A DNA stretch of 63,090 bases, counting the filler, from Nemertoderma westbladi (taxonomy: Eukaryota > Animalia > Xenacoelomorpha): assembly GCA_032718475.1 (NCBI GenBank). It is 3 parts of 3 records of this genome, joined end to end, with 100 filler letters (N's around TTAATTAATTAA, not from the genome) between each part and the next. Parts side by side here need not be neighbours in the genome. Positions count along the whole stretch, not along the records: positions 1 to 21,233 come from JAUCBJ010002552.1; 2 more parts are not named here. One strand, given 5' to 3'. Both the position numbers and the translations under genes were made by a program. Of the stretch, positions 5,708 through 46,625 are shown in pieces. Within the stretch, counting starts at the first letter, position 1. Every line of letters begins with the position of its first letter. The notes beneath the pieces were generated by a model. It was not told the DNA's origin, searched no databases, and was given only the letters and a program-made list of their open reading frames with translations.

Positions 5708-7040
5708 TCCTCCTAACCCGCGTCATCCCCAATGCAACGGAGCACTTCGGGAAGCTGGAGGAGACGGTGCAGCGGTTCATCGCCAAACTGCTCGACAGGC
5801 CGTCGCTATCGGCGGTTGAACGCCAACTAGTCTCCCTCCCAACTCGGGATGGCGGATTGGGTATCCCGGTTCCTTCCGACTTGGAGACGCAGTACGACCA
5901 CTCGCGCCGAGTCTGTGAACCGTTCGCAGATGCGGAGTCGATGGCAGCGGTGCGGACTGAACAGAGACGGATCGTGACCGAGGTGAAGGCGGAGTCCGTA
6001 ACATCGTCTCGTACTAAAAGGGAACAAGTATACGCCCAGTTACCCACAGACCAACGCAAACTGTGTGAACTCACAACAGAAAAAGGTGCGTCAGCTTGGT
6101 TAAACTCCAAGCCACTAACCCTACAAGTTACTCACCTGAGTAAAGAAGGGTTCCGGGATGCGGTGTGTCTCCGCTACGGTTGGTGTCCGAAGAATCTACC
6201 ATCTCGTTGTGCCTGTGGGGCGCGATTTTCTGCAACCCACGTCCTGTCGTGCCCAACTGGAGGTTTCCCCTCCATCAGGCACAATGAGATACGTGATTTC
6301 GTCGCCAACTCGCTCACTGAGGTCGCCTACAGCGTTGCTGTTGAGCCGATGCTCCAGCCGTTATCCGGTGAAACTTTCACCCATCGTACCACCTCGACGG
6401 ACCAGCAGGCGAGGCTGGATGTGTCTGTGAGCGGCTTCTGGGGAAACCGATTCCAGCGGTCGTTCATCGACGTGTCCGTGTTTAACCCGCTGGCGGCGAC
6501 GAACGCGGCTATGTCCCTAGACGCAGCGCACGGGAGGTGGAACATTCTACTTTCGTCCCCCTCATATTCTCGGCCTTTGGCGGGATGGCGCCGACCACGC
6601 GCCAGTTTGTTAAGCGCCTGGGACAGAAGCTCGCGGACAAACGCGAGGTCAGGTACTCGGAATGCGTCACGTGGATCCGGCGCAAGTTAAACTTCGCGTT
6701 GCTTCGTTCCTCCCTGCTCTGCCTTCGAGGTTGTAGGTCAGCCTCTAAACGGCCGGTTCATTGTCCAGTGTCTGATGCCTCCATTCGGTTGGACAACGCC
6801 GACACTGAGCCGTAGCCTGGTAGTACAGCGCAGTCGTACAGGCCTACAATAGCTGACCAGTAGGCCTACAACATAAACAACCAACTGTTTTGAATTTCCC
6901 CCTTACATCCGTATCACTGTACCTCATTGTATAAATCAGATTTGGTGATAGGGTGTAATAGTGCAATTTGAAATCCATTGTATCAACTATGTTATTATAC
7001 TATCATTCTCACCCAATCAAAAAAAAAAAAAAAAAAAAAA
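5708..7040 (+). mobile_element. 5'-truncated CRE-clade non-LTR retrotransposon (RT C-terminus, zinc knuckle, RLE endonuclease) with poly(A) tail and ~15-bp TSD
   Basis: ORF motifs SLPTRDGGLGIP, KGASAWL, FRDAVCLRYG, CACG..HVLSC, RHNEIRD, ARLDV..FW, FVPLIFSAFGGM; poly(A) at 7019-7040; TSD ACAGTATAATAATTA at 5693-5707 and 7041-7055; apparent small deletion/frameshift near 6530. Confidence 0.9.
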
Positions 7041-7182
7041 ACAGTATAATAATTACTGCCTGAAATATTATATTTACCTCCAGAGAAGGTGTGATTCCTT
7101 GTGATTTCCTTAACCTTGGCAGTTCAATTAATGCAGAGCATGTCTTTACTTTATTTCGCATTCGGTTGTTTTATACTGGATC

Positions 7183-7711
7183 TGTTAGCTTATCCAATTC
7201 CGCTAACACAAACCCATAGAGTGAGCCATAAAGCAATATTGGGAGCACGAGGTTGATTACCAATCAACCTCGTGTCAGCCCAGTAAACGGGGACAATAGG
7301 CCCCAAAGGAGACACACACAATAGGGGTCAGGGGCCAAACCCCTAACCGAGAGAGAACACAGGGAGTGAAGGGAAACACTCCAAAGGGTGCCAACAGGGA
7401 TATCAACCAATCAGAGGGGGGAAAGGCATCGATTGAGTAGCAATAAGGCCACCGTGCAATATAACCAGTAACCTGTAATCATTCATTCAGTTTACTCAAT
7501 CAGATCAGTAGGGTGGAACGGGGACTTCTGTCACCGTCCGCTACCGCCATTATATATTACCTGTTGTGTCATACTATACTATATCAACTATCAGACTATT
7601 ATACCTTTATACATATTACCCAACATCAGAACTCTTTTACCTTTCACACACGGCGGGGACGCGTGGATAGAAAACCCAACGGATAAACCGGGATCCGTAG
7701 ATCCCGTCACA
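7183..7711 (+). repeat. 5' LTR (529 bp)
   Basis: TGTTAGC...GTCACA; near-identical to 15707-16230; TATAA at ~7459 and Inr-like TCAGT downstream. Confidence 0.95.
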
Positions 7712-9554
7712 GTGACAGAAGTCCCCGTTCCACCTCGTCTTTCGTCCCAAGCGATCTCCGCGGTCTATGGAGTCGCTGGTAGGCGAACTTCTCTACGTTG
7801 CTCTCCCTGTTTACGTCGATCTCTCCGCCCCTCTCGGGCATCGTCTCCCCGAATACTATCCGTGGTGCCGTTCCCGGTTGCTCGCCCAACCTGATGGTGC
7901 TCCCCGCGAAATCCATCGCCGGCTCCTCGTGCACCCAGGTCCGCTTGCCGGATCTGTTCCAGAAGGCCCTCGCCCCACTGGCCGTCACCACCCTTCCGCC
8001 AACCCAGTCCGTGTCCGAGTGGCCTATCCTTTCGATGGGCGGCATCTCTCCGAACTCGTCGTCGTCGTCCTCCTCTTCTGGTAGTGTCTCCAATCCCGGT
8101 ATCCCGATGGGTCCACTATGTCCCTTCCCGCCTTGGCTCTCGCCCGTAGCTCTCCATCCCTCTAGCTCCCTTAACTTCCTTGGCGGTTGGTCGCCCTCGG
8201 CGCCCGCTGGTATGGGCATCGTTTGCAACCCCGACGTCGACTGTTTCAGCGATCCCACCATCCATCCCAATTCTCGCCCTAGAGACTCCCCTGAACTCCC
8301 TGACGAAGTCCAATGAAGTTCGTCTAGGCCCGCCTGTTCCTCGAAGCCGTAACTCTGTGCCCTGGCCTCCTCTTCCCTCTCCTCTGCTTCTATCCTCTCC
8401 CGTCTAGCGACTTCTTCCAGTCGCTTTGCTTCTCGTCTGTCCGCCTCTAGCTGCTCCCATCTCTGATACGGTGTATCCGTCTCCCCGTCTACCAGATGTC
8501 GGCTGTTGTAGTACACCGACTCGCCCTTCAGCCCCGGGTGGTCTACCAGACCGTCAAAGGCCGTCTTAAAGGCTCTCCTGTAGCTTAGGGGTGATCCCGA
8601 TAACAGAAATGCCCCTGGTTCCCTTTCGATAACTACGGTCATGAATAAGTTAAGCAAACTTATCATTATCCAGTCCTCCTGCAGGATATATCGCTTCTGA
8701 TATACCTTTATCGCTCCTCTGCGAAACTGATATACCTCCTGCTTTCCCGGTCTCGCTCCCCACTTCAGCGAGTTCGCTAGTTCTGCCCCGTATTCTTCCC
8801 TAAACTTTCCCCAGTCCATCGGTTTGTGGCATACGAGCCCCAATAATTGGCCCATCGCCACAGCCCCGCATTGGCCTGTGTTCTCGACTACCCCCAATCC
8901 ATCCGGTGCCGTCATAGCCATAAAGACTTTCTGCATATCCAGGAGGTTGGTGGCGTCCGGACCGATGATCCTCTCCGCGTCCTCGCGAATCGCCGATCCC
9001 ACTTTCGTCGTCGACTTCTCCCTTACTAAGACTTGTACCGCTTTCGGTAATCGGTCTAATTTCGGCCCGTCCTTCTTCCCATACGTCCCTAGGTCGAATA
9101 AGAAGATGTCCCCATTTGGCGCGGCCAAATGTAGGAGTATGGTCCTGGCCGACCCTGCCGTTCCTCGCCTCGAACCCGCTTCGTCTTCCACGGTTCCCTC
9201 GTCATCTAGGATCATATATCCTCCTCTGTTGACGGACTCTATGAATCTTTTCCAGTCCTTCCTCGGCGATTCCCTCGGATACTTCGGAATCCCGAACTTT
9301 GCCTCGTCCCCTTTCACCACGTAGTGGAAGTGTTGGAAGATCGCGTTGTCTAGTGACGGGGTCCCGTAGGTCCCGACCAACCGCTGTTCGTGCGCCTCCC
9401 GGAAGTGATCCTGCAGCGCTCGTGCCGCGTGACCCCTTTCCAACCTCTCGTAGTATCCTCTCGTCTTCTCTTCCGGGTGTCTTTCGGTGAAATCCACCAA
9501 TATTTCTTTTCCTCCTGACTCCGCCTTTCTCTTCCTGATCAGCTTACTCGCCAT
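7707..9554 (-). CDS. Antisense ORF (~615 aa) with DnaQ-like DEDDy 3'-5' exonuclease domain (WRN-exo/EXD/Mut-7-like), coiled coil and acidic tail
   Basis: ExoI MILDDEG; LLHLAAPNGDIFLFDL; LPKAVQVLV..KVGSAIREDAERI (ExoII); NLLDMQ; YQKRYILQED (ExoIII). Uninterrupted ORF; ATG at 9554; basic KLIRKRK near the N-terminus. Confidence 0.75.
   Translation of the reverse strand: MASKLIRKRKAESGGKEILVDFTERHPEEKTRGYYERLERGHAARALQDHFREAHEQRLVGTYGTPSLDNAIFQHFHYVVKGDEAKFGIPKYPRESPRKDWKRFIESVNRGGYMILDDEGTVEDEAGSRRGTAGSARTILLHLAAPNGDIFLFDLGTYGKKDGPKLDRLPKAVQVLVREKSTTKVGSAIREDAERIIGPDATNLLDMQKVFMAMTAPDGLGVVENTGQCGAVAMGQLLGLVCHKPMDWGKFREEYGAELANSLKWGARPGKQEVYQFRRGAIKVYQKRYILQEDWIMISLLNLFMTVVIEREPGAFLLSGSPLSYRRAFKTAFDGLVDHPGLKGESVYYNSRHLVDGETDTPYQRWEQLEADRREAKRLEEVARRERIEAEEREEEARAQSYGFEEQAGLDELHWTSSGSSGESLGRELGWMVGSLKQSTSGLQTMPIPAGAEGDQPPRKLRELEGWRATGESQGGKGHSGPIGIPGLETLPEEEDDDDEFGEMPPIERIGHSDTDWVGGRVVTASGARAFWNRSGKRTWVHEEPAMDFAGSTIRLGEQPGTAPRIVFGETMPERGGEIDVNRESNVEKFAYQRLHRPRRSLGTKDEVERGLLSL
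7712..7734 (+). promoter_or_regulatory. Putative self-priming primer-binding site complementary to LTR 7512-7534
   Basis: GTGACAGAAGTCCCCGTTCCACC is the exact reverse complement of GGTGGAACGGGGACTTCTGTCAC (7512-7534); it directly abuts the LTR end and lacks the TGG of a tRNA PBS. Confidence 0.75.
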
Positions 9555-9858
9555 TCCGAACACTACACTCGCTCACCTGCAGGGTGGTGCCTTACCAAGG
9601 CGCAATACAGATGAGTGAAGTATTTAAGATGTTTCGTACAGTTCGATAATGGCCTACTTTCTACTTAATTGCGCCTTTCAAGCTAAATTTAACCTAATTA
9701 ATTTCGGAGCTAGTAAATCAGCCTAATTTACAATTTCCGTCCGTTACTTTTATTATGTTCTAGAACGATTATGTTCTAGTAACTAATTCCGAGCTGCCAC
9801 CCCAGTTAAACTCTAAGAACTACACTGCTAGCTAGCCGAACTCCACCGACCACACGAG

Positions 9859-12800
9859 ATGAGTGAATCGGGCGAGACACCGATGCGGACCCCGGACGAA
9901 GATCAAACGATCCGCGAGGCCGCGACCAAGCGATACAGGCCCACGACGCCGGAGCCATCGATAACGGGCGAACCGGAAGTCCAGAACGAGCCAAGAGAAA
10001 GCGAGAGCGGGACGGAGGGAGATGGAGACGAGTCGACACGAGACGGAGAACGGCGCGCCAATGTCGCCGGCCAGCTACCGGCCGAGGGCGACGAGCGGCC
10101 CACCGAAACGGCGACGGTGGGGCCGACGGTGCGACGCCGGACGCGAAGAGACGGAGGAGAGATCGGTACCGATGTCGCCGGCCAGCTACAGGCCGAGGGC
10201 GACGGACGGCCCACCGGAACGGCGACGGTGGAGCCGCCGGTACGACGTCGAACCCGGAGGAACGGAGGAGAAGTCGGCGAGGAGGACGTCGGGGTCTCAG
10301 AGCGACTTCGACGAGCCTACATCGCGGCCCGGAGGATGCTAAAGGATGCCAAAAAGGAAGGGGCGAAGGTAGACGAGGTGAGACTGAGAAAGCGACTAGG
10401 TGAGTCGGATAGACACTTTAATTATCTAATACGTTTTGGGCAGAGAGAACTAGCCGAAATGAGAGCACATGAGATTGCCGGGGAACTGATTGAACTATGG
10501 GAGTGTGGGAGTATGGAACCTAGCGTAGCGCCAGTGTACGTAGGGCCATACTTAGTCGATGCCCGGGGAGTAAAATTAGTGGGTTGGAAGAGACCTGAGG
10601 AGGGCGAATCCGAGGTTAACTCCGAGGATTCGGTCTCGTCGGTTGGAGGAAGTTCCGGGAGGCGGGGGAAAGTTAGTAGGACGGAGGGGCGACGGGAGTC
10701 CGTCGCAACCGATAAGTCTGCTACATCCTCCGCGAAAGAAAGAAGGGTGCTGAAAATAAATCTGACGTATGAATTAGCGATGGTGGCGACAGAGCAGAAT
10801 GAGTTAGAGAGACGATTGAGAGAGGAAACCGCATGGTTGGAGAGAGAAAGAGAGTGGGCAAGGGAGGATAGAGAGAGAGTCAAGGAGTGTAGAGAGCGGG
10901 AGATGAGAGTAGGGGACGAGCCGGCGACGTGGCTTGAGATGGTTGCGAGAGATACCGAGTTGGCCGAGCAAAGTTTACGAGAGTGCATAAAGAGAGAGAT
11001 AGAGATAGAGCGTGAGCGGGAAGATTTGCGTGCTCAGCTAGGGAGGCTTGCGCAATATCAAGCCAAACTAGACCAGCGCCGACTAGAACTGGCGCGGTTG
11101 GAAATGTCAGAGAGTGAGCCCCCACTTACAAGCAGCGAGCGAGATAACCAGAGCTGGTGTAGCCGTACGGGCGGGGGGGGGGGGTAATAATAGTACGTTA
11201 GAAGTAGATAATATTAATAGTACCGTAGTAAATAACCCTAATCCCTTTATTGCAGCGAATAATATTTTACCTGGTAGTAGTAATTTAAATTTAAATACAA
11301 ATACTCTAAATAATAATTTCAATTCAAACCCGCAAAATAATTCGAATAATAATTTAAGTTTAGAGAATAGTAGTGATCTAAGTAATTTAAATAATTTAAA
11401 TAATAATCCCGTTTCAAATTCTAATAATTTAATTGATTTAACAAATAATATTGGGAATGGTGCTATTAATGTGAGCGTGTCGGACGTACATAACCCGGCA
11501 GACGGTGGCCTGGTAGGCCACGTAGTTAGTAGGCAGGAAGTGGCAGGGTTGAGCCAACCCGACGGCGGCCTGGTAGGCCACGTAGTTGGTAGGCAGGAGG
11601 TAGCGGGGTTGAGCCAACCCGAAGTAGGCCTGATGGGCCACGCAGTAGTAGAGAGAGAGGCGGGGGTGAATAGACCCAACCGTAGTAGAGACAGTGCGTC
11701 GACTAGAGAGGGGCGTAGAGACGAAGTGAGAGATAGTGAAGTTAGATGTGGCGGGTGGGGGGGGGGCTACCGGCGCCCCACCACATAAGATTGGTGGCGA
11801 GAGAGGGGGGGCAGAGAATGCCCCACAAGAGGGGTGTAGAAGTGTAGTAAGAGGTAGTGAAGTTAGAAGTGGCGGGTGGGGGGGGGGGGCTACGGGCACC
11901 CCACCGCGAGAGATTAGTAGAGAGAGAGGGGGGGCAGAGAGTGTCCCACAGCCGTCAGCGGATAATGCGCGGGCCGAGCTAGGTAAACCGCAACACCCGG
12001 CGGCGGAGAGTAATAGGGGAATTGCGAGTATCCCCAGCGGCGTGCGATCGAGCAGAGAGAGGCAGGTTGACGTCGCGAGAGGGCAGACGAAGCGTCGGGC
12101 CCGATCAGAAGAGAGAAGAAGAAGAGTGGAGTTTAACCGGGAGGTCGACGAGAGATCTCACCAGTCGGAATACTGCACTGAAAAGAGAAGAAGAGGAGAT
12201 AGTAGAAAAGGTGTCGCCACGAACGATAGGAGTGCGAGGACGGATAACGGACCGTCGACAGTAGAGATGGAGTCAGGGAGCCAGTGGGGTCGAACTTCGG
12301 GAGATTGCCGTCGCCCCGGAGAAACGCACCGCACGCCAAGAGAGGGGTACAGGAGGTACCAATACAAAGTCGAGAACAGGAGAGGGGATCGAAGAGAAGC
12401 TTCCCGACGGGATATAGCTGCCGATCGAGAGTGCAGTAGTCGCGGGGAGATTCGAGATTCGCGAAGAATAAACTTCGGTTCGGAAGGGCACATGCAGACT
12501 GCAGGACATACTGTAGGTCTTACTGCACATACTATTATAGGCCATGCTGGGAGAGATAGAGTAGGCGATGGGGTAGCGCGAACGACGGGATTAAACCCGG
12601 AAGTCGCGGAGTACATACCGGTAGGTAGGCGAGAGGTAGGTAGGCCTATATCGGTACAGCAGCATGACTATAATACACAGGGACATAACATATATCCAGG
12701 GGAGGGGGGAGTTATTGTAGATAGATGTATGGGCCCCAATATATTAACATCAACCCCAGTACCAAACATACTGGCTGGGGGGGGACAGGGTGACATTCCC

Positions 12801-13634
12801 CCATCACAATATCGACAATATACCCCGATAGGAGCAAGAATATCGAACTCCCTGGACGAGAGCAGGTCGTGCGGACAGTCACCACCACACGCGGCCATAC
12901 AGGGGACTGCTAGTCCACAGTTAGCTGGTAGCAGGGCCACACCGTGGCGGGGACAGAAAGAAAATAACACCAAAAATAAACACAATCCCAATATACCCAG
13001 TAGGCCGAGTCTAGACAACCAAAACACTAAATCGGTACATATAAACCTAAGCGCGATACGTGAAGGACTATACAGGAAACGCTATAATCCAGGATTCCAA
13101 TGTCAATTACATCGGGACGGAACCCATAAGACCAGGAGTTGCAAGTACTGGCAAGCGTTGCCCAAACGAGATCGTGTAGCCTACACAGACGCAAACGGAC
13201 TATGTCATCGATGTGTGGTAAAAGGACACAGATCCGGAGAGTGTTGGAAAGAGAGAGGATATGAAAGGACTAAACCAGGGGCAGAGAAGCCCATTAGCAA
13301 ACATAAGGGAGTCGGGAAAGTAGAAGGAGGCGTGTTGCATACACACGCAGGACTGACACAGTGCGAGGGGGCATTACATGGGCAGACACCGCATATACCG
13401 AGGGACGAGCGGGGGTCGTCGAGGGCCTTAATGCCAGCGCACATACGAAGGGGGGGGCCAGCAAAGGTAGCACCGAAGAGAGTGTGGCGAAGAGTTAGAG
13501 GACGTATAGGAGGGCAGCAGGAGAGTGCCTACCGGAAGAAGGGGCACGTAAGAGTTTTTAGTCGTCCAAAGTTTTGGACTGAGGGGGTGGGAATGAGGGC
13601 GAGACGCCCTTCCCACGCACAAAATATAAAATAA
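9859..13634 (+). CDS. Gag-like protein (~1250 aa if joined), split into three ORFs by indels in G runs (11173-11184, 11757-11766)
   Basis: N-terminal coiled coil, Asn-rich tract, and C-terminal CQLHRDGTHKTRSC..R....GLCHRCVVKGHRSGEC double knuckle typical of Bel/Pao Gag; successive ORFs shift +1 at the G runs. Confidence 0.7.
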
Positions 13635-13674
13635 TTATTTAATTAAAAATAATTAAATAATAGAGTAGGTAGAA

Positions 13675-15330
13675 GTTAGGTAGTTAGTTAGTTAGTTAGT
13701 TAGTTAAAGGGTGGTACGTAGTACCGTTAGTAGAAGAGTTAGTAGGAGGGTACGTGTAGTACCGTTAGTAGAAGAGTTAGTAGGAGGGTACGTGTAGTAC
13801 CGTTAGTAGAAGAGTTAGTAGGAGGGTACGTGTAGTACCGTTAGTAGAAGAGTTAGTAGGAGGGTACGTGTAGTACCGTTAGTAGAAGAGTTAGTAGGAG
13901 GGTACGTGTAGTACCGTTAGTAGAAGAGTTAGTAGGAGGGTACGTGTAGTACCGTTAGTAGAAGAGTTAGTAGGAGGGTACGTGTAGTACCGTTAGTAGA
14001 AGAGTTAGTAGGAGGGTACGTGTAGTACCGTTAGTAGAAGAGTTAGTAGGAGGGTACGTGTAGTACCGTTAGTAGAAGAGTTAGTAGGAGGGTACGTGTA
14101 GTACCGTTAGTAGAAGAGAGTTAGAGGGTACGTAAGTACCGCTAGTTAGTAGAGTTAGAGGGTACGTAAGTACCGCTAGGTAGTTAGAGTTAGAGGGTAC
14201 GTAAGTACTGCTAGTTAGAGTAAGAGTTAGAGGGTACGTAGTACCGTTAGAGAGTAGGAGTTAAGGGGTACGTAGTACCGTTAGAGAGTTAGTAAGAGTA
14301 AGAGGGTACGTAGTACCGCTAGCTAGTAGAGAGAGCTAGAGTAGTAAGAGGGTACGTTGTACCGCTAGCTAGTAGAGAGAGCTAGGAGTAGTAAGAGGGT
14401 ACGTAGTACCGCTAGTTAGGGGTGTTAGTAGTAGCAGTAGAGGGTTGTGGGCACCGTAAGCGCCACGTAGTTAGAGTTAGTAGGGAATGCGCTGAACTTA
14501 GTGGGGCACGGGCGTGATGATGTGTTTGATGTAAGAGCAGGGTATGTTAATTAGGGTGGGTGCCGGGCACAAGAGGTGCCGGGCACAAAAAGAGTTAGTA
14601 GTAGAGTTAGTTGAGTTAGTAGAGAGTTAGTAGAGTTAGTAGAGTTAGAAGGTGCCGGGCACAAGAGGTGCCGGGCACAAAAAGAGTTAGTAGAGTTAGA
14701 AGAGAGTTAGTAGAGTTAGTAGAGTCAGTAGTAGTTCACATAATTAACGTACCCACTCTGCCGGCACTCAGAGCGTCACGTGTAGGCGATGAGACGTAAA
14801 GGGGATGTAGAGGGGTAGAGACGGGCACATAGGGTGCCAGAGAGTAGAAGAGTAGAGACGGGCACATAGGGTGCCAGGTAGTAAGTTAGAGAGGTAGTAG
14901 TGTAGTAGAGAGGGCACATAGGGTGCCAGGTAGTAGAGTAGAGCAGAGGGGGCACATAGGGTGCCAGGTAGTAGAGCTAGAGAGGTAGTTGAGTAGTAGA
15001 AGGGCACATAGGGTGCCAGATAGTAGAGTGGTTGTGGGCACCGCAAGCGCCACGTAGTTAGAAGAGTAGAGTAGAGTTAGCAGAGCTAGTGGAGTAGAGT
15101 TAGTAGAGCTAGTTAGCAGAGTTGGTAGACTCAGAGGAGTCAAGTAGAGTTGATAGAAGTAGAGAGCTAGTAGGAGTTAGTTAGACTTAGTAGAGAGTTA
15201 GAGTCAGTAGAAAGTTAGAGGCTCTCAGTTAGAGCTAGAAGTAGTAAGAGTTAGTAGTTAGCAGAGTTAGTTAGATAGTTAGAGTTAGTAAGCAGTAGGT
15301 AGATAGTATGATAGCACAGGGGTAGCATTA
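13675..15330 (+). repeat. Strand-biased (C-poor) tandem arrays in the 3' part of the LTR element; 38-bp unit x ~10 plus derived units
   Basis: GTACGTGTAGTACCGTTAGTAGAAGAGTTAGTAGGAGG repeats, then GGGCACATAGGGTGCC units within AGTTAGTAG linkers. Confidence 0.9.
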
Positions 15331-15706
15331 GAGATTAAAGCCTTAGGGAGTGACAAGAGAGTAGAGAGTAATAGTGCGGAGTGCGAAGAGAGCGTGGGCG
15401 CAATTCAAGTGTGGGGGAGGAGAAGTGAGAGGAAGAGTGTGGGACGAGGAGGTCCGGGGGTATGCGAGAGTTGGAGTAGAGTGGTGAGAGTGTTGGGGAA
15501 ACAAAAATTGTGTGAGAGAAGCGCACGATCGGCCCGACACGAGACGCCAGAGGGTAGTGACATCATACCCATAGGGAGCGGCCTGGAAAGCCGACTCCGA
15601 AAAAATAGACCCACCCCACACCCGATGCTAGATCGGGATCCAGCGGAATTGTAGCGCACTTGAGTTGGATGCTATCTTCTCACCGGGAAGATAGCATGGG
15701 GGGGAG

Positions 15707-16230
15707 TGTTAGCTTATCCAATTCCGCTAACACAAACCCATAGAGTGAGCCATAAAGCAATATTGGGAGCACGAGGTTGATTACCAATCAACCTCGTGTC
15801 AGCCCAGTAAACGGGGACAATAGGCCCCAAAGGAGACACACACAATAGGGGTCAGGGGCCAAACCCCTAACCGAGAGAGAACACAGGGAGTGAAGGGAAA
15901 CACCCCAAAGGGTGCCAACAGGGATATCAACCAATCAGAGGGGGGAAAGGCATCGATTGAGTAGCAATAAGGCCACCGTGCAATATAACCAGTAACCTGT
16001 AATCATTCATTCAGTTTACTCAGTCAGATCAGTAGGGTGGAACCGTCTGTCACCGTCTGCTACCGCCATTATATATTACCTGTTGTGTCATACTATACTA
16101 TATCAACTATCAGACTATTATACCTTTATACATATTACCCAACATCAGAACTCTTTTACCTTTCACACACGGCGGGGACGCGTGGATAGAAAACCCAACG
16201 GATAAACTGGGATCCGTAGATCCCGTCACA
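15707..16230 (+). repeat. 3' LTR (524 bp)
   Basis: Direct repeat of 7183-7711, preceded by the PPT and followed by the TSD. Confidence 0.95.
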
Positions 16231-16305
16231 GGATCTTCCATTCCAAGATTTTCCGTAGGAGCAAGTCTGTCAATTCAATTCAATTTCAATTCAACATATT
16301 TATTT

Positions 16306-17148: not shown

Positions 17149-19945
17149 TTAATTTAAAAATCTGTTAAAATGACAATATGGCAATAGATCAACATCTTTC
17201 AATTTATCAGTAAAAATATTTACATTTGCAGAATTGACAATTTCTTCGGGTAAGGAATTCCAAATATCTACAGTTCTGTTTGAAAAAGAGTTTTTTACAA
17301 TTTGTAGACGGCAAAACGATTTGAAAAGCTTACGGTTATGGCCTCTATTTCTAATATTGGTACTTAAAGTGAAAAAGTCATTAAAATTTAGATCAACATC
17401 ATTATGAAAAATACTATACACCATTTTTAAATCATAAATATGCCTACGTACTTCTAGAGGTTGTAGCTTAAGAAAATTAATTCTCTCCATGTAACTACGG
17501 CTGCCGAGGTTACAGCGCTTAAAAAGACGCCGGGTGAAGTAACGCTGAACCCGTTCGATTAAATCAATACTACCTAACGTAAATGGAGAGCAAACGGCAG
17601 TACAATATTCTAGTAATGGTCTGGCATATGACTTATACGCTGTACAAATGGCTTTCAGGTTACCGGTATAAAAACACTTAAATAAAATATTCACTACTCT
17701 ATACGCCTTCTTTACTTGTTCACGGTAGTGAAGATCAAATTTCAAATCATGATTCACAATTACACCAAGATCTCTACAAAAGTCATCATTTTTTATAAGG
17801 TTACCATTAAGAAAGTATTGCACAGGTGACACCTTTATACAAGTTGTAGATAAATGAACTACTGAACATTTGTGTGCAGCTATCTTGACCTGCCACTCAT
17901 TTGCCCAAGTCTCTAGTGATTTGAGAGCTTCTGCCAATGAATGGATGTCTGATGATTTGCTGTACAACTTGAGATCGTCAGCGAATAAATTACAACAGGT
18001 GCCGGTACCTATAATATCAGGTAAATCATTAACATAGAGTAAAAATAATAATGGCCCTAAAACGCTTCCTTGAATTGTACCTGATATAACTTTGCTTACG
18101 ACAGAAATAGTATTACCAACCAAGACTTGTTGGGTACGATTACATAGAAAAGCACCAATCCACAATAACAAGTGACCCGAGATACCGTAGCTAGCAAGTT
18201 TAGCCAAAAGTTTACAGTGAACGACAGAATCAAACGCCTTGGCGAAATCTATGTATATAACGTCTATAGAGCTGCGACTGTCAAGCAGCTTAAACCATTT
18301 ATTAGTACTGTCAAGCAATTGAGTACAAGTACTGCGACGTTTCATAAATCCATGTTGCGACTTACTAATAATATTATGCAACCTTAGGTACAATAATACA
18401 TCATTTTTGATACATAACTCCATTATTTTACATGTTACACATGTAAGCGAAATGGGGCGGTAGTTATACGGATTAGTGTGGCTGCCCTTCTTAAAGAGGG
18501 GGATAATGTTAGCAGTGAGCCATATAGAGGGTAAAGCGTGAGATTCAAATGATACTTTAAATAAAATAGACAACGGAACAGATAAACATTTAGGTAGTTT
18601 CGCAAAAATAAAACTGGGAAAACCATCTGGAGTTTTTCCACATTTAGCCTTAATATTCTTAAGTACAGAATAAACAGCACCAGGGGAAAAATCTACAGTG
18701 GAAATGTGTACACCATTAGCTACTCTACGGTTAAAAATAGGCATTGATTCATTATCCTTTGTAAAATTCTCAGAAAAAACTTCAGAAAATATATGTGCTT
18801 TAGTAGTGTCATCAATTATTACTTTGCCATTCATTTTAAACGCAGATATACCCGATCTGACTTTACGTTTGCTATTAACATAAGTAAAAATAGCGTTAGG
18901 CTTGCCAGATGTTAATATTTTGTTTTCACGTGCACAAGCCACTCTAAAGATGCCTTTAGAAACGGCCTTGGCACATTTCTTATACTCCTCTTGGCCGTTT
19001 TCTGTGTGGCGACGACGCCATAACAATTTCTTTCGCTTTTGTAATTTCGTTATAAAGCGCGGATGTGATTTATTACTTGAAATTTTAGTGAAAGGTACAA
19101 ATTTTTCGATACCGGATTTCAAAATTTCGGCAAATGCCAACCAATAATCATCCACAGATTCACAATTGTTATATACATCGGACCAGTTATAATTATCTAA
19201 GTATGCACCAAAGCTTATATAGTTGCCTTTCTTAAAGTTATAAAAACCGGCATCATCATTTTGAACATACTGTTTAGGAGAAACGATACTAAAAATAATT
19301 CCTGAATGATCACTAGTCGAAAAATTTTCGCGAGTATCAACATCAGATACGAACATATCCTCAGAAGTGAAAACAAGATCTAACACACTATTTAAGCGAG
19401 TTGGTTTAAATTGGAGTTGTTCAAGGCCACTTTCTAAAATAAAATTAGAAAAAGTATTATAGAGACTATTATCAGGGTGGGATCCATCAGACCAGTTAAA
19501 AAGAGGCAAATTAAAGTCACCAAAAACTGTTACAGGAAAGTCCACATTGCATAAATCTGATAAACCCAGACATAACCGGCGATCATCATCGTTTGACGAG
19601 GAAGGGGTTCGATAAACGCAAATCAAACGGCAAGGATGCTGACCTACGAGATCGAGGGCGACGATCTCCAGACCTTCGAATTTTTCACCAGAAAGTTCAA
19701 TTCGATGGATAGGTGCTCCCAGGGCGCAGTCACGGATAAGGATTGCGACACCGCCTGCCCTTAAAACACGATCGTTGCGATAAACACTAAACTTCCCGTT
19801 CCCGGACAGCATACCATCAGTAAAGGAGCTCGTCAGCCAGGTTTCCGTAATTCCGATTACGTCAAATTCGCAGTCGGCCAAAAAAGCGTTCAATTCGGCC
19901 AATTTGTTACCTAGAGATTGGGCGTTGAAGCAACAACATTCTATG
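17149..19945 (-). CDS. CR1 ORF2: APE endonuclease plus reverse transcriptase
   Basis: CFNAQSLGNK, IGITETWL, GDFNLP, LDLVF, SDH; YRPISLT, QHGF, YIDFAKAFDSV, QGSVLGPLLF, LFADDLK, RDLGV, RGHNRKL. Confidence 0.95.
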
Positions 19946-19979
19946 AAAGGCGAGACACAGTGCGTCTGGTATTCCCCCG

Positions 19980-21128
19980 TTACGCGTTTCCCAGATTTCC
20001 CCGGACGGCATGCTCCTGGGTGCCAGTAGCAGTAGGTCTGGCGGAATCAGCTGGGGTAGCCGGAGTAAACGCGCTGGCTGTGGTTGTAGTCGCACGTCCT
20101 AGTGGTCTGGAAGCCCTCGACTGTCGACGTAGGTAAGCTTGCTGCATCTGTAGTTTGGTTAGATCGTTGTCAATAAAGACATTCCGATGATCAACGGAAT
20201 TTCTCAGTTTCGACTTCTCCTTTATGACTTGGGACTTACTTACGAGATTTGATGCTTGTACAATTAACAACGATGATCCTTCGCCATGTTTGTTGCGCCT
20301 AAATAGTACTTTATCAACGGATCCCGCGATGGATAATTCCTTACTTATGAAACTGTTAACGAATTCCAGCTCTTTGCCTTTATCCTCTGGTAGATCGAGA
20401 CCGCGTATAACAAAGTTTTTCTCCCGTTTCTGCTGCTCTTGAAGTTCCTTTCCTACATCGTCGACAGAAATCATCGGGACACGAGAAGAGGAAGCTTTAG
20501 TGTTCCCCCTGTTCGTTGTAGTCACAGGTACTTTGAACCATGGGTTGGAGGAGCTATCTACCGGGGAGTCGTCCCTAGCTGCGATTTCACTCCGCAAATC
20601 TTCAAACTTAGTGTTTAATAGAGCAGTGTGATCTTTTAGAGATTTCTCGAGTTTATTTAGCAGTTCATTATCTCTCTTCGAGGTAGAATCCAACCGAGAA
20701 TAGTCACTGATTGCTGAATCCCATTGACCTTCACATTTGTTGCAGACGATCTTACAGTTTTTGCAGTTACCAACCACAGCAAGTTGCGCCTCCGAAAGAC
20801 GAAGACAGGAACCGTGAATCCAATGACCACAGACCTCGCACCCCAAACAATTGCTGCCACTCACCTTCTTATCACAATGGGGGCAACAATCGTTAACCGA
20901 GTCATTCTCGGAGACAGAATCGAATCCGCATGAAATTGAGTGTATGTCAAAGTCTGCTTTGGATACGAACAAAGCTGAACACGAATCGCACGAAAATAAC
21001 TTCGACATATCGATTCTAGTAGGCCTAGCAGTTGGCAAAGGACTAGAAACTGGTAATCTAGACCCTGCGTCAGTAGCGAGCGATACTCGTGTAGCAGCAG
21101 TCCGCTTACCCTTCTTCGTGCCGCTCAT
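19980..21128 (-). CDS. CR1 ORF1: C2H2-like finger, PHD finger, coiled coil, RRM-like region
   Basis: CDSC..FDIH; CPHC..CEVCGHWIHGSC..CNKC PHD pattern; REKNFVIRGL; VFIDNDLTK. Confidence 0.9.
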   Translation of the reverse strand: MSGTKKGKRTAATRVSLATDAGSRLPVSSPLPTARPTRIDMSKLFSCDSCSALFVSKADFDIHSISCGFDSVSENDSVNDCCPHCDKKVSGSNCLGCEVCGHWIHGSCLRLSEAQLAVVGNCKNCKIVCNKCEGQWDSAISDYSRLDSTSKRDNELLNKLEKSLKDHTALLNTKFEDLRSEIAARDDSPVDSSSNPWFKVPVTTTNRGNTKASSSRVPMISVDDVGKELQEQQKREKNFVIRGLDLPEDKGKELEFVNSFISKELSIAGSVDKVLFRRNKHGEGSSLLIVQASNLVSKSQVIKEKSKLRNSVDHRNVFIDNDLTKLQMQQAYLRRQSRASRPLGRATTTTASAFTPATPADSARPTATGTQEHAVRGNLGNA

Positions 21129-21233: not shown

Positions 21234-21333
21234 NNNNNNNNNNNNNNNNNNNNNNNNNNNNNNNNNNNNNNNNNNNNTTAATTAATTAANNNNNNNNNNN
21301 NNNNNNNNNNNNNNNNNNNNNNNNNNNNNNNNN
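21234..21333. other. Scaffold gap with TTAATTAATTAA linker
   Basis: N runs around an all-frame-stop spacer; assembly artefact. Confidence 0.95.
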
Positions 21334-22767: not shown

Positions 22768-24871
22768 ATGTGTGTTAATAATAACTAATAATAATTAATA
22801 ATAACATAAAAACAGCTTTGAAGCACCAATGAAGACCAATCCACCGATTCAATATACCAGAATATAATAACAGCCCACAAGGAATCAGCTAAGAGGCATA
22901 GCCCCCAGAAACCCAAACGAAAACAGTATGTGCCATCTCAAAACTCTGAGGTTACTTGTAAGAGAGAAGATCTTAAGATAGCCTACAAAGTTAAAACCGA
23001 ACAACCAACAACCGAAAACATTAACAAGGTTGAGAAAGCTAAGGACGATCTTAAATTGGCCTACAACATCAGCCAGGAAAAGTATGGCCTACAACATCAG
23101 CCAGGAAAAGTATAAAATAAAACAGGACAAAACTTAAGCAATTACAACTGCTCACATACAGCAACAATCAAGACTTACCTGGCAAACTGTAAATGAGGTA
23201 TCTGGTCGGAAAAGTTGTGCAAAGGGGCGCCTCAAAGCCGATAGTCCTGAAGAACGTGTTGGGAAGTGGAAAAATCACTTCAGCAACTTGCTTGGGCAGC
23301 CACCAAACATCGAGGTCACCCCTACAAGGAAAATATATGACAAGACACTACCTATAGTAACAGGGGACTTCACACCTGCCGAACTCCAAAGAAGCATTAA
23401 AAGCATGTCCAATAATAAAGCAAGTGGATTAGATGAAATCCCAGCGGAGGTATGGAAAACCGGAGTGCTAAACAGACCATTATTGAATGTTTGCAATCGG
23501 ATGTTAAAAGGGGAAAAGCCACCACCAATTTGGACTAAAGTTCAACTAAAGCCTCTCCCCAAGAAAGGAGACCTCGGCATACCAACAAACTATCGTGGGA
23601 TCTGTCTGCTTGTGGTAGCTGCCAAAATATACAATAAAATGATTCTATATAGGATTAGGCCTCACATAGGGAAACTACTACGTAAGAGTCAAAACGGATT
23701 TCGATCAAGTAGATCAACAATAGCTCAGATACTTGCACTACGGAGACTGATTGAAGGAATTAAGTCAAAGAATCTCCCCGCAGTCATAAACTTTGGATTT
23801 CAAGAAGGAATTCGACTCCATCCATAGAGGTAAAATGCTTGAAATCTTAAGAGCTTATGGAATACCAGAAGTAATTGTTGCTGGCATTGGATTGTTATAT
23901 TGTGACACAGAAGCGCAGGTACTCTCACCAGATGGTGAAACTGAGTTTTTCTCAATCCTGGCTCTCGTACTGCAAGGTGACACATTAGCACCATTACTAT
24001 TTGTAATTGTGCTGGATTACACAATGAGGACGGCCACAAAGGGTGAAGATCTGGGATTCACACTTCAAGAACGCAGAAGTAGTAGATATCCAGCAACTAC
24101 AGTGACAGACACCGACTTTGCGGATGACATCGCCCTGCTCTCTAATATGCTAGCAGATGCACAGCTTCTACTAAATAAAGTGGAGAGGGCTGCTAAGGAG
24201 GTTGGATTGCATATAAATGCTACCAAGACCGAATTCATGACCTTTAATGTTGATGGAAACTTGACAACCATTGATAATAATCAACTAAGGAAGGTCGATG
24301 ACTTCCAGTACCTTGGATCATGGATAGAGAGTAGCAAAAAGGACATAGAAGTTAGGAAAACAAAGGCTTGGGTAGCTCTATTAAAAATGGATACCATCTG
24401 GAAATCAGATCTCTCCAGGCACCTGAAGACTAAGTTCTTTCGAGCCACAGTGGAAAGTGTATTTTTATACGGGGGTGAGACCTGGACACTGACTAAATCA
24501 CTTGAACAACGAATTGATGGTTGCTACACAAGACTACTAAGGGCAGCTCTAAACATCAGCTGGATACAACACATTACAAACACCGAGCTTTATGGTACAA
24601 TACCGCCTGTATCCACCACCCTCCGTGAACGCAGATTAAGATTCAGTGGGCACTGCTGGCGAAGTAAAGACGAGGTCATACCAGATCTACTTTTCTGGCA
24701 ACCAACTCATGGAAAGCGTAGTCGTGGACGACCGGCCATAACATATATAGATCAACTTGAAAGGGATACTGAACTTGGGAGAAACGAAATTGCGACAACT
24801 ATGGAAAATCGGGTAGCCTGGAAGGATCTCATTTCCACTGTCCGAGTTCGCTCGACCTAGTACTAGTAGTA
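22768..24871 (+). mobile_element. 5'-truncated RTE-clade LINE with ~52-bp TSD and (TAG)n tail; RT frameshifted
   Basis: KASGLDEIP, NYRGICLL, QNGFR, DFKKEFDSI, LQGDTLAP, DFADDIALL, RRLRFSGHC; absent from the paralogous site at ~39040-39105. Confidence 0.92.
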
Positions 24872-25550: not shown

Positions 25551-26695
25551 GGGGGGGGGGGGGGGGGGGGGGGGGTAGCGCATTTTCAGACCAAAAAGTC
25601 GAATTTTTGAAACATATCCTATCTGATGGAGAATTTCATGCTGAATCCAAATATGGAAACCGTTTTCCCATATCTTGCTTAGTTTTCGAGATATCTGGGA
25701 TAGAAGATACTGGCTCCGATGTATCGCGATATCGGTAAAGGAGATGAAGTTTGGGGTTTGCATTCAATTTCTGAATATTTCTGTGCTCAGTGGTGCTAAT
25801 TGGATGTCTCCACGAGAAAGAGCACAAAATTTTAATTGAGAAGATATTTTTTTATGATTATTGGACCTACTGATCAGTTTATAAGACAACTTCAAGTCTC
25901 CGGAATGAAGACGGGACTCGAATAAGCGACTCTGCGGTCTTTGCGGGATTACACGGAATAGACTTATCGGTCATCGGAGATCTTCAAAATGTATAATCTC
26001 CAGTTCTAGTGGTCGTACGAAGTTCGTTTTGGGCTCATTCGAAAGCTCTTTTCTCAGAGACCAAAGTTACCATTTGGTTTGGCAAACTCTTGAAAGCTGC
26101 CTGAGCAATCATAACTTGAACAAAATTTGCAAGGCATATTTTACCCAAATTCATGTTATGTTGCTTTACAACCATTTTGTCTTAAATCAAATGGTAACTT
26201 TGTTCTCTAAGAAAAGAGCTTTCGAATGAGCCTAAAACGAACTTCGTACGACCACTAGAACTGGAGATTATACATTTTGAAGATCTCCGATGACCAATAA
26301 GTCTATTCCGTGTAATCGCGCAAAGACCGCAGAGTTGCTTATTCGAGTCCAGTCTTCATTCCGGAGACTTGAAGTTATCTTATAAACTGATCAGTAGGTC
26401 CAATAATCATAAAAAAATACCTTCTCAATTAAAATTTTGTGCTCTTTCTCGTGGAGACATCCAATTGGCACCACTGAGCACAGAAATATGCAGAAATTGA
26501 ATGCAAACCCCAAACTTCATCGCCTTTACCGATATCGCGATATATCGGAGCCAGTATCTTCTATCCCAGATATCTCGAAAACTAAGCAAGATATCGGAAA
26601 ACGGTTTCCATATTTGGATTCAGCATGAAATTCTGCATCAGATAGGATATATTTCAAAAATTCGTCTTTGTGGTCCGAAAATGCGCTACCCCCCC
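25551..26695. mobile_element. Kolobok-like non-autonomous DNA transposon with ~500-bp TIRs and TTAA TSD
   Basis: TTAA|GGGG...CCCC|TTAA; arms ~25551-26080 and ~26184-26695 are inverted copies; the paralogous site (~40105-40120) has a single TTAA. Confidence 0.85.
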
Positions 26696-28211: not shown

Positions 28212-30909
28212 CTATCCACTCAGAAGGGGCTCCTTTTCATCTTCCACAACTTGTTGCCTCCCATCATCATCTGTCAAAACTGGTGCAAATATTTCCCTCC
28301 CAACATATTTATAATAAAGCACCAATACAATAGCCGGGATCATCACAATAATGTTGAATCCACAGAAAACTGTAGCAGCTAAAGGAAACTTGATATATTG
28401 AGCCAATGGCCCGGCAACTAGTGGTCCAATAAATAGACCACAAGCCCCTGTGCTGGTTGCAACGGACATCACAACTGTGTGGTTACCGATAGTTTGTGGC
28501 CATTGGAGGCGGTATTTGTATATTTTAAGCAGCGTTTCTATATAAGGTGTTGCCATTGACATTCCAAATCCTAATAAAGCAGTTCCAACTATCACAATGC
28601 TAATTCTTTCTGGTAAGTTCAATAAAGGTGATGGCCCCATCAGTAACAATCCTACTATACCAACGAAATGGGAAACAATTATCACTATCAAAGTGTTGAT
28701 TGATCGATAACTGGCCAGAAATGAACCCCATGCTAATCCTGTTGAAACGTTTATAAGTGGAGCTATAAGAAACATTGATCCAATTTCTACAGGAGACAAA
28801 TCATATACATTCACAAGATGAATAGCGAATGTTGTTTCATAGAAGCCCATAGCCATAGCCATTACAAACCACATAAAGAAAGCAGATAAACATACCCTGG
28901 CTTTGAGTAAATCAAATATGGTCTTTGTAGTGACAATTTTGCTGGGTTTGATGCTAGGGAGAGAGATTATGTTTATTAAGGCAATGACTACTTCTGTTCC
29001 ACCAAGGATTACAAAGGGAGTAACAAAGTTGGTGTATTGGTATAGAATTCCTCCCAGGGCAGGTCCGCACATGGTTCCTCCAAAGAAGGCATTGTGAAGA
29101 AGTGATAAAACAAATATTTGTTCTTTCTGTGGGAAACAAGAGATAATATGTATTAATTTTGAGCTATTTGTAATTCTTGATAAATTATCAATGGCCTTGA
29201 ATTTATTTACTTCGGTCTTGAACTTATGTATGTCCCTCTTCATTTATTTATATGTCGGTTTTGATTTATTATTGTTACACACAGATTTATTTAGGCTATG
29301 CTTGATTTAATTATGTCGTCTTTGAATTATTTATGTCGTTCTTGATTTCCATTTACACGGTCTTGCTCTTGATTCATTGGTCTAAGGGACCTGCCTCCAG
29401 TTGTAATCAACCAATCAGCATTGACCTGGTTGATGAATCACATTGTACGTTAGTGCAGTGAGTGTAAACTACATATACACTATTAATATAATCATGAAAC
29501 TGAAGCTAAAATTTATAAAACAAAATATTGTATAACACTACACTGTATAAACTCGGCCAACATGCCGACATCTCCCTAAGAAATCTCCGGTTGTAGAGTA
29601 CAAGGTTTAACTGTACAAGAGTAGCGGTGGTGGCCCTGGCCATATGGTACACAGTACAGTACATGTTGGTGTACCATGCTGTACAGTACATCACGCCTTG
29701 ATTCAGCAACCAGGTCATTGCTGATTGGTTGATTACAATTGGGGGGAAGTTTTGGCCATTGAAACCTTTGACCCTATGGAAACTTTGGCCATGTGGAACC
29801 TTTGACCCTATGGAAGCCATAAGCAAGCTAGTATGTACTATGAAGTCTGGGTTTCCAGAACCCCTTCGTGGAGACAGAATAAATATATTATTTTGGGGAG
29901 CGGGTCAAATCCTATTGTTCAGGATGCAATGCTAGACAATGTGGGACAAGTGTAGTGTACTGTACTATTACTATACATCAACACCAAAGTGCCTGCACCT
30001 AGCATAATAAGCATGGAATGCAGAGTGCTACGTAAGACATTAGTATCGCTGACATTCCCCTTTGTGCTGCTACTCATATGAGATCAGTTTGACCATCACC
30101 CCATAGTACCGGGATGCTCTGGCCCGATTGTATGGTTAGGGTCGCATAGCTAATACAATGATTTATGGTACATTTTCAGAAGTAATGTGAATCACAATAA
30201 TTGGCTATTATAACAGACTAATGTCAGTATTACTATATTGATAATACGAAATTAGTCAACATTTCGAGAGGTTTGGGTCAACTATCACATCACACTTTTA
30301 TTTGTAAATGTACTATAAATATAATATAATATATAATATAACAATAAAATAAATAGTGTCTGATGACTCCAGATTAAATACTCACCTTATACAAACTGCC
30401 AGCCAAGCTGTAGCAAGCCAAGTTGGCACCACCTAGGGTAAAAGCTTCAATGACACGACAACTGAAACAAAGAACAATGTAAGATACACCAGGTGGACCC
30501 CAATCCAAAATGCCAAATAAAGCCTTACAAGTACCAGCCAATATATATCCCGATATTAATACAACCTTAACCCCAATATTTGGGATAAAATTTCCGAAAA
30601 CAATGAATGACAGACACCTTATTCCAGCATAAACACCAAACAGGATGCCAACGAGAGATTCATTGAAGCCACGAGTGACGGCCCTGGTAGTAAAGAATGC
30701 AGCTGGCAGAGAGAAACACATTCCTGCACTGAAAATTTGGATAACCAAAAGGATTGTATTAGTAAGACGATGCCTAATAATTCTCCATAAAATATTCCTG
30801 GAATTTTTTCTTGAAATGATTGTTGAATCACGACGTCTTCATCAGGTTTACTTGTACATTTATAATCATCACTAACATCAACATTTGATAGAGCTATGAT
30901 TTCTTTCAT
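28212..30909 (-). pseudogene. SLC18B1-like MFS transporter copy 2, both exons (30386-30909 and 28212-29126; ~479 aa), 1-nt deletion near 30832
   Basis: Phase-0 splice joins ..GSLYK|KEQIFVLSLLHNAFFGGTMCGPALGGILY..; exon 1 is 524 nt versus 525 in copy 1; C-terminal EKEPLL dileucine-like motif. Confidence 0.8.
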
Positions 30910-33900: not shown

Positions 33901-34508
33901 TATTACAGGTTTGTAGTAGTGCGTCAAGTTGTGTTCTGTATTTATTAGTAGGGTCTTTAGTTAATGTAGTATAGGTGTTAGGGTCTCTTAAAATACGTAA
34001 GCATTCATTTTTATAGTCATTGGTATCTAGGATTAGAGTGGTACCAGATTTATCGCCCCTACAGATACGAATGTTAGTGTTGGACTTGAGTGATTTGAGG
34101 ACAGTTCGTTGTTGTTTCGTAAGGTTGTCCTGAGGTACATTTTTGGGGGAGACATTGGGTGTTCGGTCTACGTCACGGTGTAGTTCGGCGATGAGAGCTT
34201 CCACTATTTCGTCGTCGCTTTTCGGTGGTAGGGCTCAAGGGGGTGTTTTTAGAGATTTGTTGAGTTGTCTGATTAGTTTGTTGTTGGCGTCCTTTGAGTT
34301 GGTGTGTGCTCCTGGGTCGTTGGTGGTTGCTCCATTGTTGTTAGTCTTCGTCCCTGGGGTGTTGGTGCTCCCGTTTTGGTCGTTGGTTATCGTTCCTGAG
34401 TAGTTGGTGTTCACTTCCGGGTTGTTTCCCGCCCCTGTGTTGTTGGCGTTTGTCCATGGGTTGGTGTTCGCCCCTGGGTTGTTGTTCGCCCGTGGGTTGG
34501 TGTTTTCC
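30934..34508 (-). mobile_element. Penelope-like element (RT plus GIY-YIG endonuclease), degraded, 5' truncated
   Basis: DNLT..LKSLK..GDKSG, KGRPIV, SLDVVDMYTNI, YLQLRGAAMGS, YKRFVDE, LPFLDV, LYIKPT, CNSSRCLTC, YYIGQT..ERFNGH. Confidence 0.92.
31044..31090 (-). ncRNA. Minimal type I hammerhead ribozyme-like motif in the Penelope pLTR (variant core)
   Basis: Minus strand ATAGT-CTGATGC-AGACC-GGTA-GGTC-GAA-AACGTT-T-ACTAT: stem I, stem II and palindromic stem III; A9 replaced by C. Confidence 0.65.
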
Positions 34509-46525: not shown

Positions 46526-46625
46526 NNNNNNNNNNNNNNNNNNNNNNNNNNNNNNNNNNNNNNNNNNNNTTAATTAATTAANNNNNNNNNNNNNNNNNNN
46601 NNNNNNNNNNNNNNNNNNNNNNNNN
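46526..46625. other. Scaffold gap with TTAATTAATTAA linker
   Basis: Same spacer as 21234-21333. Confidence 0.95.

Follow-up and report, generated by a model that had tools for sequence, protein, structure and literature searches.

DEDDy exonucleases are carried as cargo by several classes of transposon, with neither activity nor role shown in the portions of the literature covered. The nearest described cases are the bdelloid LTR retrotransposons Juno1/2 and Vesta2/5, in which a DEDDy ORF3 lies downstream of pol with DEDD changed to DEED; the accessible part of that paper holds no demonstration of activity and proposes roles in 3′-end processing or silencing (Rodriguez, Kenefick, Arkhipova 2017, PMC5408684). 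According to the same text, the bdelloid env- and GDSL-type ORF3s that were sequenced show mostly neutral intragenomic variation. DEDDy cargo is also present in Terminons (PMC6431247) and in Dada DNA transposons (PMC3706591), which, as far as the excerpts of those sources go, have no primer-binding site (PBS).

Self-priming is known from Tf1/sushi, Tj1, Tcn1 and plant TAR/Houba elements (PMC7175516, PMC4600332, PMC10085805, PMC6317226), the Tf1 self-primer arising where RNase H cleaves the RNA, after base 11 and before base 12 (PMC7175516). The sequence criterion, as worded in the part of the source at hand, is a complement of at least 10 nt between the PBS and the 5′ LTR, located 0–5 nt after the LTR (PMC6317226). 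Also pertinent are TR-GAGs, the Gag-only, non-autonomous LTR elements described in plants (PMC13570524, from the portion available).

DEDDy cargo in LTR elements (bdelloids), self-priming (Tf1/sushi) and Gag-only elements are each, separately, already known. What appears to be new here is an antisense, PBS-overlapping, DEDDy-like ORF in a pol-less LTR element. The open-access literature, in part accessible as excerpts, yielded no 5′ leader with a DEDDy ORF in antisense and no DEDDy gene together with self-priming; such elements may be recorded in subscription papers, in supplements, or in Repbase or Dfam. Compared by description with what the available text gives for bdelloid ORF3, the likeness is that of a stand-alone DEDDy-type ORF in an LTR retrotransposon with one catalytic Asp read as Glu. 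The bdelloid elements described there have a full pol with ORF3 downstream of it, whereas here the ORF is antisense in the 5′ leader, overlaps the PBS, belongs to an element without pol, and encodes 615 aa with a coiled-coil-like stretch and a long tail. Features shared with TR-GAG, again by the portion of the source available, are LTRs, PBS, polypurine tract (PPT), Gag-like coding, the lack of RT, RNase H and integrase, and recent insertion; as against those plant elements, the present one adds an enzyme-like antisense gene and has a likely animal host.

Anatomy and family of the element

The window, i.e. the whole stretch of DNA that was analysed, comprises 63,090 nucleotides from the Nemertoderma westbladi assembly GCA_032718475.1 (three parts joined by filler). 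Positions 7183–16230 are an LTR retrotransposon of 9,048 bp with all the hallmarks present: TG...CA LTRs, target-site duplication (TSD), PBS and PPT. The 5′ LTR (7183–7711, 529 bp) and the 3′ LTR (15707–16230, 524 bp), both TG...CA and on the plus strand, differ by 5 substitutions and one 5-nt gap, which falls within the primer motif dealt with below, and the left and right TSDs are identical 5-mers (7178–7182 and 16231–16235, plus strand). In contigs of the DNA runs X1, X2 and X3 (two samples) the empty site is present, 7177 being joined to 16231 with omission of 9,053 nt, and the insertion is therefore recent. Another gene in the window has amphioxus PPP1R32 as its best match (30%), which makes an animal host likely.

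The Gag-like region (9859–13634, plus strand) comprises a coiled-coil-like ORF1 (9859–11187, plus) and an ORF2 with a Cys-His knuckle (12267–13634, plus), between which there are two frame changes, at or near long G runs, that may be genuine or due to assembly error. Against Pfam, ORF2 reaches zf-CCHC_3 at E 0.003, weaker than the cut-off, and its ESM Atlas scores of 0.85–0.89 to Gag knuckles are a lead only. Its two Cys-His units with a Leu/Arg-rich spacer presumably resemble the BEL/Pao Gag knuckle, and the 5-bp TSD is a further likeness to BEL/Pao; on the other side there is no Pfam BEL/Pao domain match, no pol and no homolog. What follows on the plus strand is a non-coding tandem-repeat region ending in the PPT (13635–15706) and, because this repeat holds no stop-free stretch longer than 115 codons in any of six frames, pol is absent. 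A Pfam scan of the element's three ORFs gave no RT domain. The family is pol-less and hence non-autonomous.

It is also large, diverse and recently mobile, with many divergent copies. Contigs aligning to 7480–9600 at 80–100% identity number 5,049, 2,921, 2,876 and 42 in four sets (contig depth over this interval not being copy number), and across its 2.1 kb there are 358 single-site variant rows and 39 indel rows. Among damaged copies, 11 of 13 joints remove parts of the antisense ORF (depth 8–62), and several family pieces have gaps inside it.

The antisense ORF, its constraint and its predicted domain

The minus-strand ORF, intact and open for 615 codons from 9554 to 7707, lies in the 5′ leader between the LTR and gag. 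Its last nine codons, EVERGLLSL (7736–7710), cover the PBS (7712–7734) and its TGA stop (7709–7707) is within the final 5 nt of the 5′ LTR, in agreement with the sequence-only reading, which had it ending over the PBS with the stop in the LTR end. Between it and the divergently oriented ORF1 there is a 304-bp spacer (9555–9858, 42% GC). Reading of the ORF from its own separate transcript, which would start in this spacer, the putative site of the antisense promoter, run into the LTR and overlap the whole leader, is likely; neither a TATA nor an initiator pattern was matched in the spacer.

Constraint on the frame was assessed with the best 40 of the 358 variant rows, a non-random choice of the best supported, all 40 being inside the ORF; each variant was classed singly against the window codon, with neighbouring changes in one codon counted separately. 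Third codon positions of the ORF frame account for 28 of the 40 listed variants, whereas those of the remaining minus frames account for 3 and 9. Of the 40, 27 are synonymous, where the expected share is 0.23–0.29 (p<1e-6). The antisense reading frame is therefore not due to chance. Within aa 60–345, 20 of the 24 listed variants are synonymous (p<1e-7; crude pN/pS 0.06–0.08), which refutes, for the N-terminal half, the neutral decay that had been named as telling against the gene. With 23 of these 24 falling in aa 236–334, it is over aa ~236–334 that purifying selection on the ORF is shown; no listed variant falls in aa 83–235, and the codons of Exo I and Exo II are therefore unsampled by the selection test. 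No indel inside the ORF is among the best 12 of the 39 indel rows. In the tail (aa 346–615) only 7 of 16 listed variants are synonymous (p 0.06–0.15). An E/R-rich, coiled-coil-like stretch, read by eye (aa ~362–400; 8355–8471, minus strand), gives way there to low-complexity sequence with weak constraint, and within the protein constraint is lowest in this C-terminal tail, which overlaps the PBS.

A DEDDy/DnaQ 3′–5′ exonuclease domain is predicted for aa ~96–305 (8640–9269, minus strand) from the ESM Atlas, alignments and a guided model, with acidic motifs of DEDDy type sitting where they had been claimed to be. Exo I is D117/D118/E119 (9206–9198), i.e. D-x-E; Exo II is D192 of AIRED (8981–8979), with a conserved K184 upstream (K-x7-D). 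W265, in a W-x-x-R-P segment, precedes Exo III, which consists of Q286, Y289 (8690–8688) and E293/D294 (8678–8673) and reads Y-x3-E-D as against the canonical Y-x3-D. By their residues Exo I and Exo II are intact. A match of Exo III is plausible only after an insertion of ~13 aa, with which Q286/Y289/E293 come into register (Q-x2-Y-x3-acid) and D294 is one off; without it, F277 and A281 fill the Exo III columns (MAFFT).

The ESM Atlas gives 0.95 to three unnamed eukaryotic clusters, a score that shuffled proteins reach about once in 100, and 0.94 to a 3′–5′ exonuclease cluster, 34% of whose members carry PF01612 (169/256 features), that heads the set in which 24 of the 30 matches fall. In pairwise BLAST against E. 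coli RNase D, the W-x-x-R-P segment is aligned at E 9e-4. With 43 bacterial RNase D rows in MAFFT, D117, E119, K184, D192 and W265 occupy columns in which all 44 rows agree, and when the query is added to a fixed RNase D alignment it matches 8 of 13 invariant columns, including Q286, Y289 and, at the last Asp, E293 (at least 8 such columns are matched by 5 of 400 shuffles, and 6 by the reversed sequence). A glocal profile against RNase D has z 2.8, reached by 6 of 1000 shuffles. Local HMM and hhalign comparisons with purpose-built bacterial RNase D sets are non-significant (E 0.03–0.28), and in local profile tests the real score is reached by 28 of 508 and 99 of 637 scored shuffles. Pfam, to which the sequence-only reading had looked for confirmation, gave none: 0 families at E≤0.1 and, equally, at E≤10. 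For the domain there is no match in NCBIfam or PHROGs, no PDB sequence match, and no true homolog among 5.8 billion and 1.84 billion proteins.

Structure prediction, likewise proposed as a check, has a mixed outcome. The single-sequence model is without usable fold (pLDDT 31.6), while unguided secondary structure, a helix, three strands and helices, is consistent with the N-terminal half of the DnaQ fold. A model guided by the bacterial RNase D rows, and as evidence of fold circular, has pLDDT 67.7 overall, mostly 65–92 over aa 96–255 and below 50 at aa 127–134, 219–222 and 259–295, the last span containing Exo III. In Foldseek that model, with partly circular result, ranks EXD2 (E 3.7e-5), trypanosome RNase D, Egalitarian, RICE1, Nibbler and WRN above E. 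coli RNase D. From the assertion of a WRN/EXD/Mut-7-like exonuclease, then, a DnaQ domain survives as likely, by the Atlas and the ordered motifs, and against it are the absent Pfam and PDB matches and the non-canonical Exo III. The domain looks like the WRN/EXD/Mut-7 group: it shares with EXD2, WRN-exo, Nibbler/Mut-7, Egalitarian/EXD1 and RNase D the Exo I D-x-E, K-x7-D, W-x-x-R-P and the Foldseek ranking, and differs in having ≤20% identity to the RNase D rows, in carrying inserted residues behind Exo I and ahead of Exo III, and in Y-x3-E-D. The DnaQ fold itself is likely, with moderate support, and, given that fold, the domain is probably active.

The leader duplex and self-priming

The PBS (7712–7734, plus strand) follows the LTR with no base in between. 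A 3′-tRNA-type PBS was excluded, there being no TGG start. In the 5′ LTR, 7512–7534 (plus strand) is its exact 23-nt reverse complement and the putative self-primer, with 23 nt and offset 0 for the complement length and LTR distance of PMC6317226; this exact complement points to Tf1-like self-priming. The predicted leader fold (z −4.3, with 0 of 100 shuffles equally stable) contains a 24-bp helix, 7511–7534/7712–7735, of mean pair probability 0.99, which bears out the primer duplex that had been a premise of the sequence-only reading. Beside it are the predicted flanking helices 7535–7548/7652–7661 and a U5-end hairpin at 7689–7706 (pair probabilities 0.90–0.99; all within 7535–7706, plus strand). 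Pattern matching, and that alone, gives a TATA-like motif at 7460 and an initiator-like TCAGT at both 7487 and 7505, by which the primer motif would be within ~25 nt of the RNA start. The PBS pairs at −26.9 kcal/mol with the motif of the 3′ LTR, as against −51.8 with that of the 5′ LTR, the middle of the former being shorter, and loose ends at 7720 (X1, X2) reveal PBS variants that share the first nine bases and diverge beyond. From both of these, the middle of the duplex varies within the family.

Resemblance to Tf1/sushi, Tj1, Tcn1 and TAR/Houba, to the extent that the excerpted sources describe them, lies in a PBS that abuts the LTR, complements the 5′ LTR near the likely start and lacks TGG, and in additional helices beside the primer duplex and a U5-end hairpin. 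The primer match is 23 nt here as against 11 in Tf1, and the helices on its flanks differ from the pretzel described for Tf1, where PBS-adjacent sequence is paired with LTR sequence. The available portions of those sources make no mention of an exonuclease gene in these self-primed elements, and the present element has no chromodomain integrase or pol by which to be placed in Tf1/sushi. Self-priming via the LTR/PBS duplex, with the 3′-OH made by the RNase H of a helper RT, is likely.

What the antisense gene may do

Trimming to the primer, proofreading for the helper RT and counter-silencing, the jobs suggested in the sequence-only reading, drew no support from the results. The explanation put forward, which taken whole has somewhat less than an even chance, is that of a conserved antisense gene of a pol-less LTR family encoding a divergent DEDDy accessory enzyme that trims RNA 3′ ends against silencing, with Tf1-style priming proceeding without it. 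A helper element would provide RT, RNase H and integrase; the leader RNA would fold back and be cut after 7534 in the manner of Tf1; and the enzyme, by trimming RNA 3′ ends, would blunt host RNA-based silencing or clear RNA by-products. The last step is the weakest, and counter-silencing or clean-up of by-products as the enzyme's job is doubtful. It is favoured because DEDDy cargo recurs in the PBS-less Terminons and Dada, so that benefit need not depend on priming, because the tail overlapping the PBS is the least constrained, and because trimming on the same molecule would remove template. Overlap of ORF and PBS would come about because the gene takes up the leader in full, and would be non-functional in itself. 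Against this explanation, a trans-acting anti-silencing protein should be easily lost by a non-autonomous family, yet this one is retained; bdelloid ORF3, in the accessible part of the paper, has no clear link to copy number (PMC5408684); and ORF copies with deletions or gaps exist.

One alternative is primer maturation. Here the enzyme would start from a short RNA initiated in the LTR, or from a leader nicked endonucleolytically, and trim it back to the 23–24-bp PBS duplex, so giving the 3′-OH, the helper RT being assumed incapable of cutting RNA duplexes. In length the duplex is roughly double the Tf1 primer, which has 11 nt in the consulted part of PMC7175516, and this length permits annealing in trans; the gene is strongly selected in a family without pol, suggesting that the helper does not supply its activity; and RNase D-type enzymes, by the available text of PMC5408684, mature 3′ ends of structured RNAs. 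However, 7535–7548 is itself paired in the intact transcript and is template for the minus strand; trimming in cis requires an earlier cut and removes template, trimming from the 3′ end would destroy the PBS, and the weak constraint on the PBS-overlapping tail, the DEDDy cargo of PBS-less elements and the failure to find a poly(A) hexamer, as for a short LTR transcript, on the LTR plus strand also count against it. Primer maturation is given as unlikely, and its specific version, in which an LTR-initiated RNA (~23–45 nt when finished) would anneal over 24 bp to the PBS and have its 3′ tail trimmed by the antisense enzyme to the duplex edge, as a touch less likely again.

A role without catalysis is a further outside prospect, at about one chance in five: the DnaQ fold would be an RNA-binding or transport adaptor of Egalitarian/EXD1 type, and the coiled coil would be its docking arm when the element's RNA is packaged or localised. 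The Foldseek matches include Egalitarian structures, one of them bound to I-factor RNA, Exo III is off the canonical register, and Maelstrom and EXD1 are described, in the covered part of PMC5408684, as inactive DEDD derivatives that retain RNA binding. On the opposite side, D117, E119 and D192 are in register, a single insertion restores Q-x2-Y-x3-acid, and the D-to-E motif change occurs, by the same part of that paper, in the bdelloid ORF3s too.

Less probable by some way is action on DNA, in which the enzyme would either trim cDNA ends in the manner of WRN/EXD2 or proofread for the helper RT, as would accord with EXD2 and WRN being top structural neighbours of the guided model and with the proposal, in the seen portion of PMC3706591, that Dada DEDDy domains process DNA 3′ ends; a family so diverse (358 variant rows in 2.1 kb) is not suggestive of high fidelity, and the protein is unfused to Gag or Pol. 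That the product is a selected protein of some non-DnaQ fold with accidental motif matches is very improbable, the blank library searches (Pfam, PDB, NCBIfam, PHROGs, homologs), shuffle p-values of only ~0.006–0.013 and the ~1 in 100 shuffled proteins hitting Atlas 0.95 being set against the agreement of the language-model search with the ordered motif alignment and of unguided secondary structure with the N-terminal half of the fold.

As for wider meaning, a candidate substrate, the 24-bp primer/PBS duplex, is now defined and makes a role for DEDDy cargo testable with one protein and one RNA. Were primer trimming to be true, it would give independence from host tRNA and from helper RNase H, add a third way of priming to those by tRNA and by Tf1-type cleavage, and for the first time assign a defined job to a DEDDy enzyme carried by a transposon. 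The element also points to self-priming by a primer of unusual length, in a lineage that is likely animal and without a place in Tf1/sushi, and such a gene is kept under strong purifying selection, despite the loss of pol, in a large family of recent activity.

Primer motif and primer-binding sites of the LTR element

The two LTRs of the pol-less element (7183–7711 and 15707–16230) differ at six places, and four of these, three substitutions and one 5-nt gap, fall within 41 nt around the primer motif, the 23-nt reverse complement of the primer-binding site (7499–7539 in the 5′ LTR, 16023–16058 in the 3′ LTR; clustering p 0.02, post hoc). Of the element's two LTRs, only the 5′ one carries the full match to the primer-binding site. 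The clustering could be the trace of an intermolecular strand transfer, or else of a conversion tract. Loose ends at 7720 among contigs from two sequencing runs (X1 and X2) reveal related copies whose primer-binding site is the same for its first nine bases and then different, and such copies may represent another subfamily or a helper.

Antisense ORF and interior of the element

One contig from a further run (X6) skips 1,681 nt within 7799–9481 and is a derivative in which the antisense ORF (7707–9554) for the predicted exonuclease is largely missing. Between the Gag-like ORF1 and ORF2, an open, Asn-rich, low-complexity frame (11190–11790) with long G runs at its bounds is likely part of a single Gag-like polyprotein. 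The place of pol is occupied by purine-rich tandem arrays (13642–15300; a 38-nt unit and others), to which a GC skew of up to 0.53 is due.

Other elements and genes in the window

Shortly before the LTR element, a GC-rich coding fragment (5740–7041) stops ahead of a poly(A) run at about 7020–7041 and, judged by eye, appears to be the 3′-terminal part of a non-LTR retrotransposon; a Pfam search with the ORF at 5941–6690 gave no match. A LINE-like element at 17149–21128 (−) has an ORF with endonuclease and reverse transcriptase (PF14529 and PF00078), preceded by a further ORF with a weak PHD match, and additional reverse transcriptase fragments lie at 23835–24860 and 34456–35574. An inverted repeat at 25569–26695, with 512-nt arms 96% complementary and 103 nt between them, is MITE- or foldback-like.

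Each of the two record joins (21234–21333 and 46526–46625) holds a pair of N runs of 44 bases, four in all, and the second pair lies at the end of the ORF at 46578–48014, so that this end is uncertain. A PPP1R32-like gene (61669–62889, +) is a single ORF of 406 codons (PF15691, E 2e-62), with only 30% identity to its best database match. Two MFS transporter ORFs (28212–29243 and 41996–42856, −) are about 95% identical and 13.8 kb apart, which, together with other repeats at intervals of about 8.1–8.3 kb (22063, 30326 and 38389), suggests tandem duplication.
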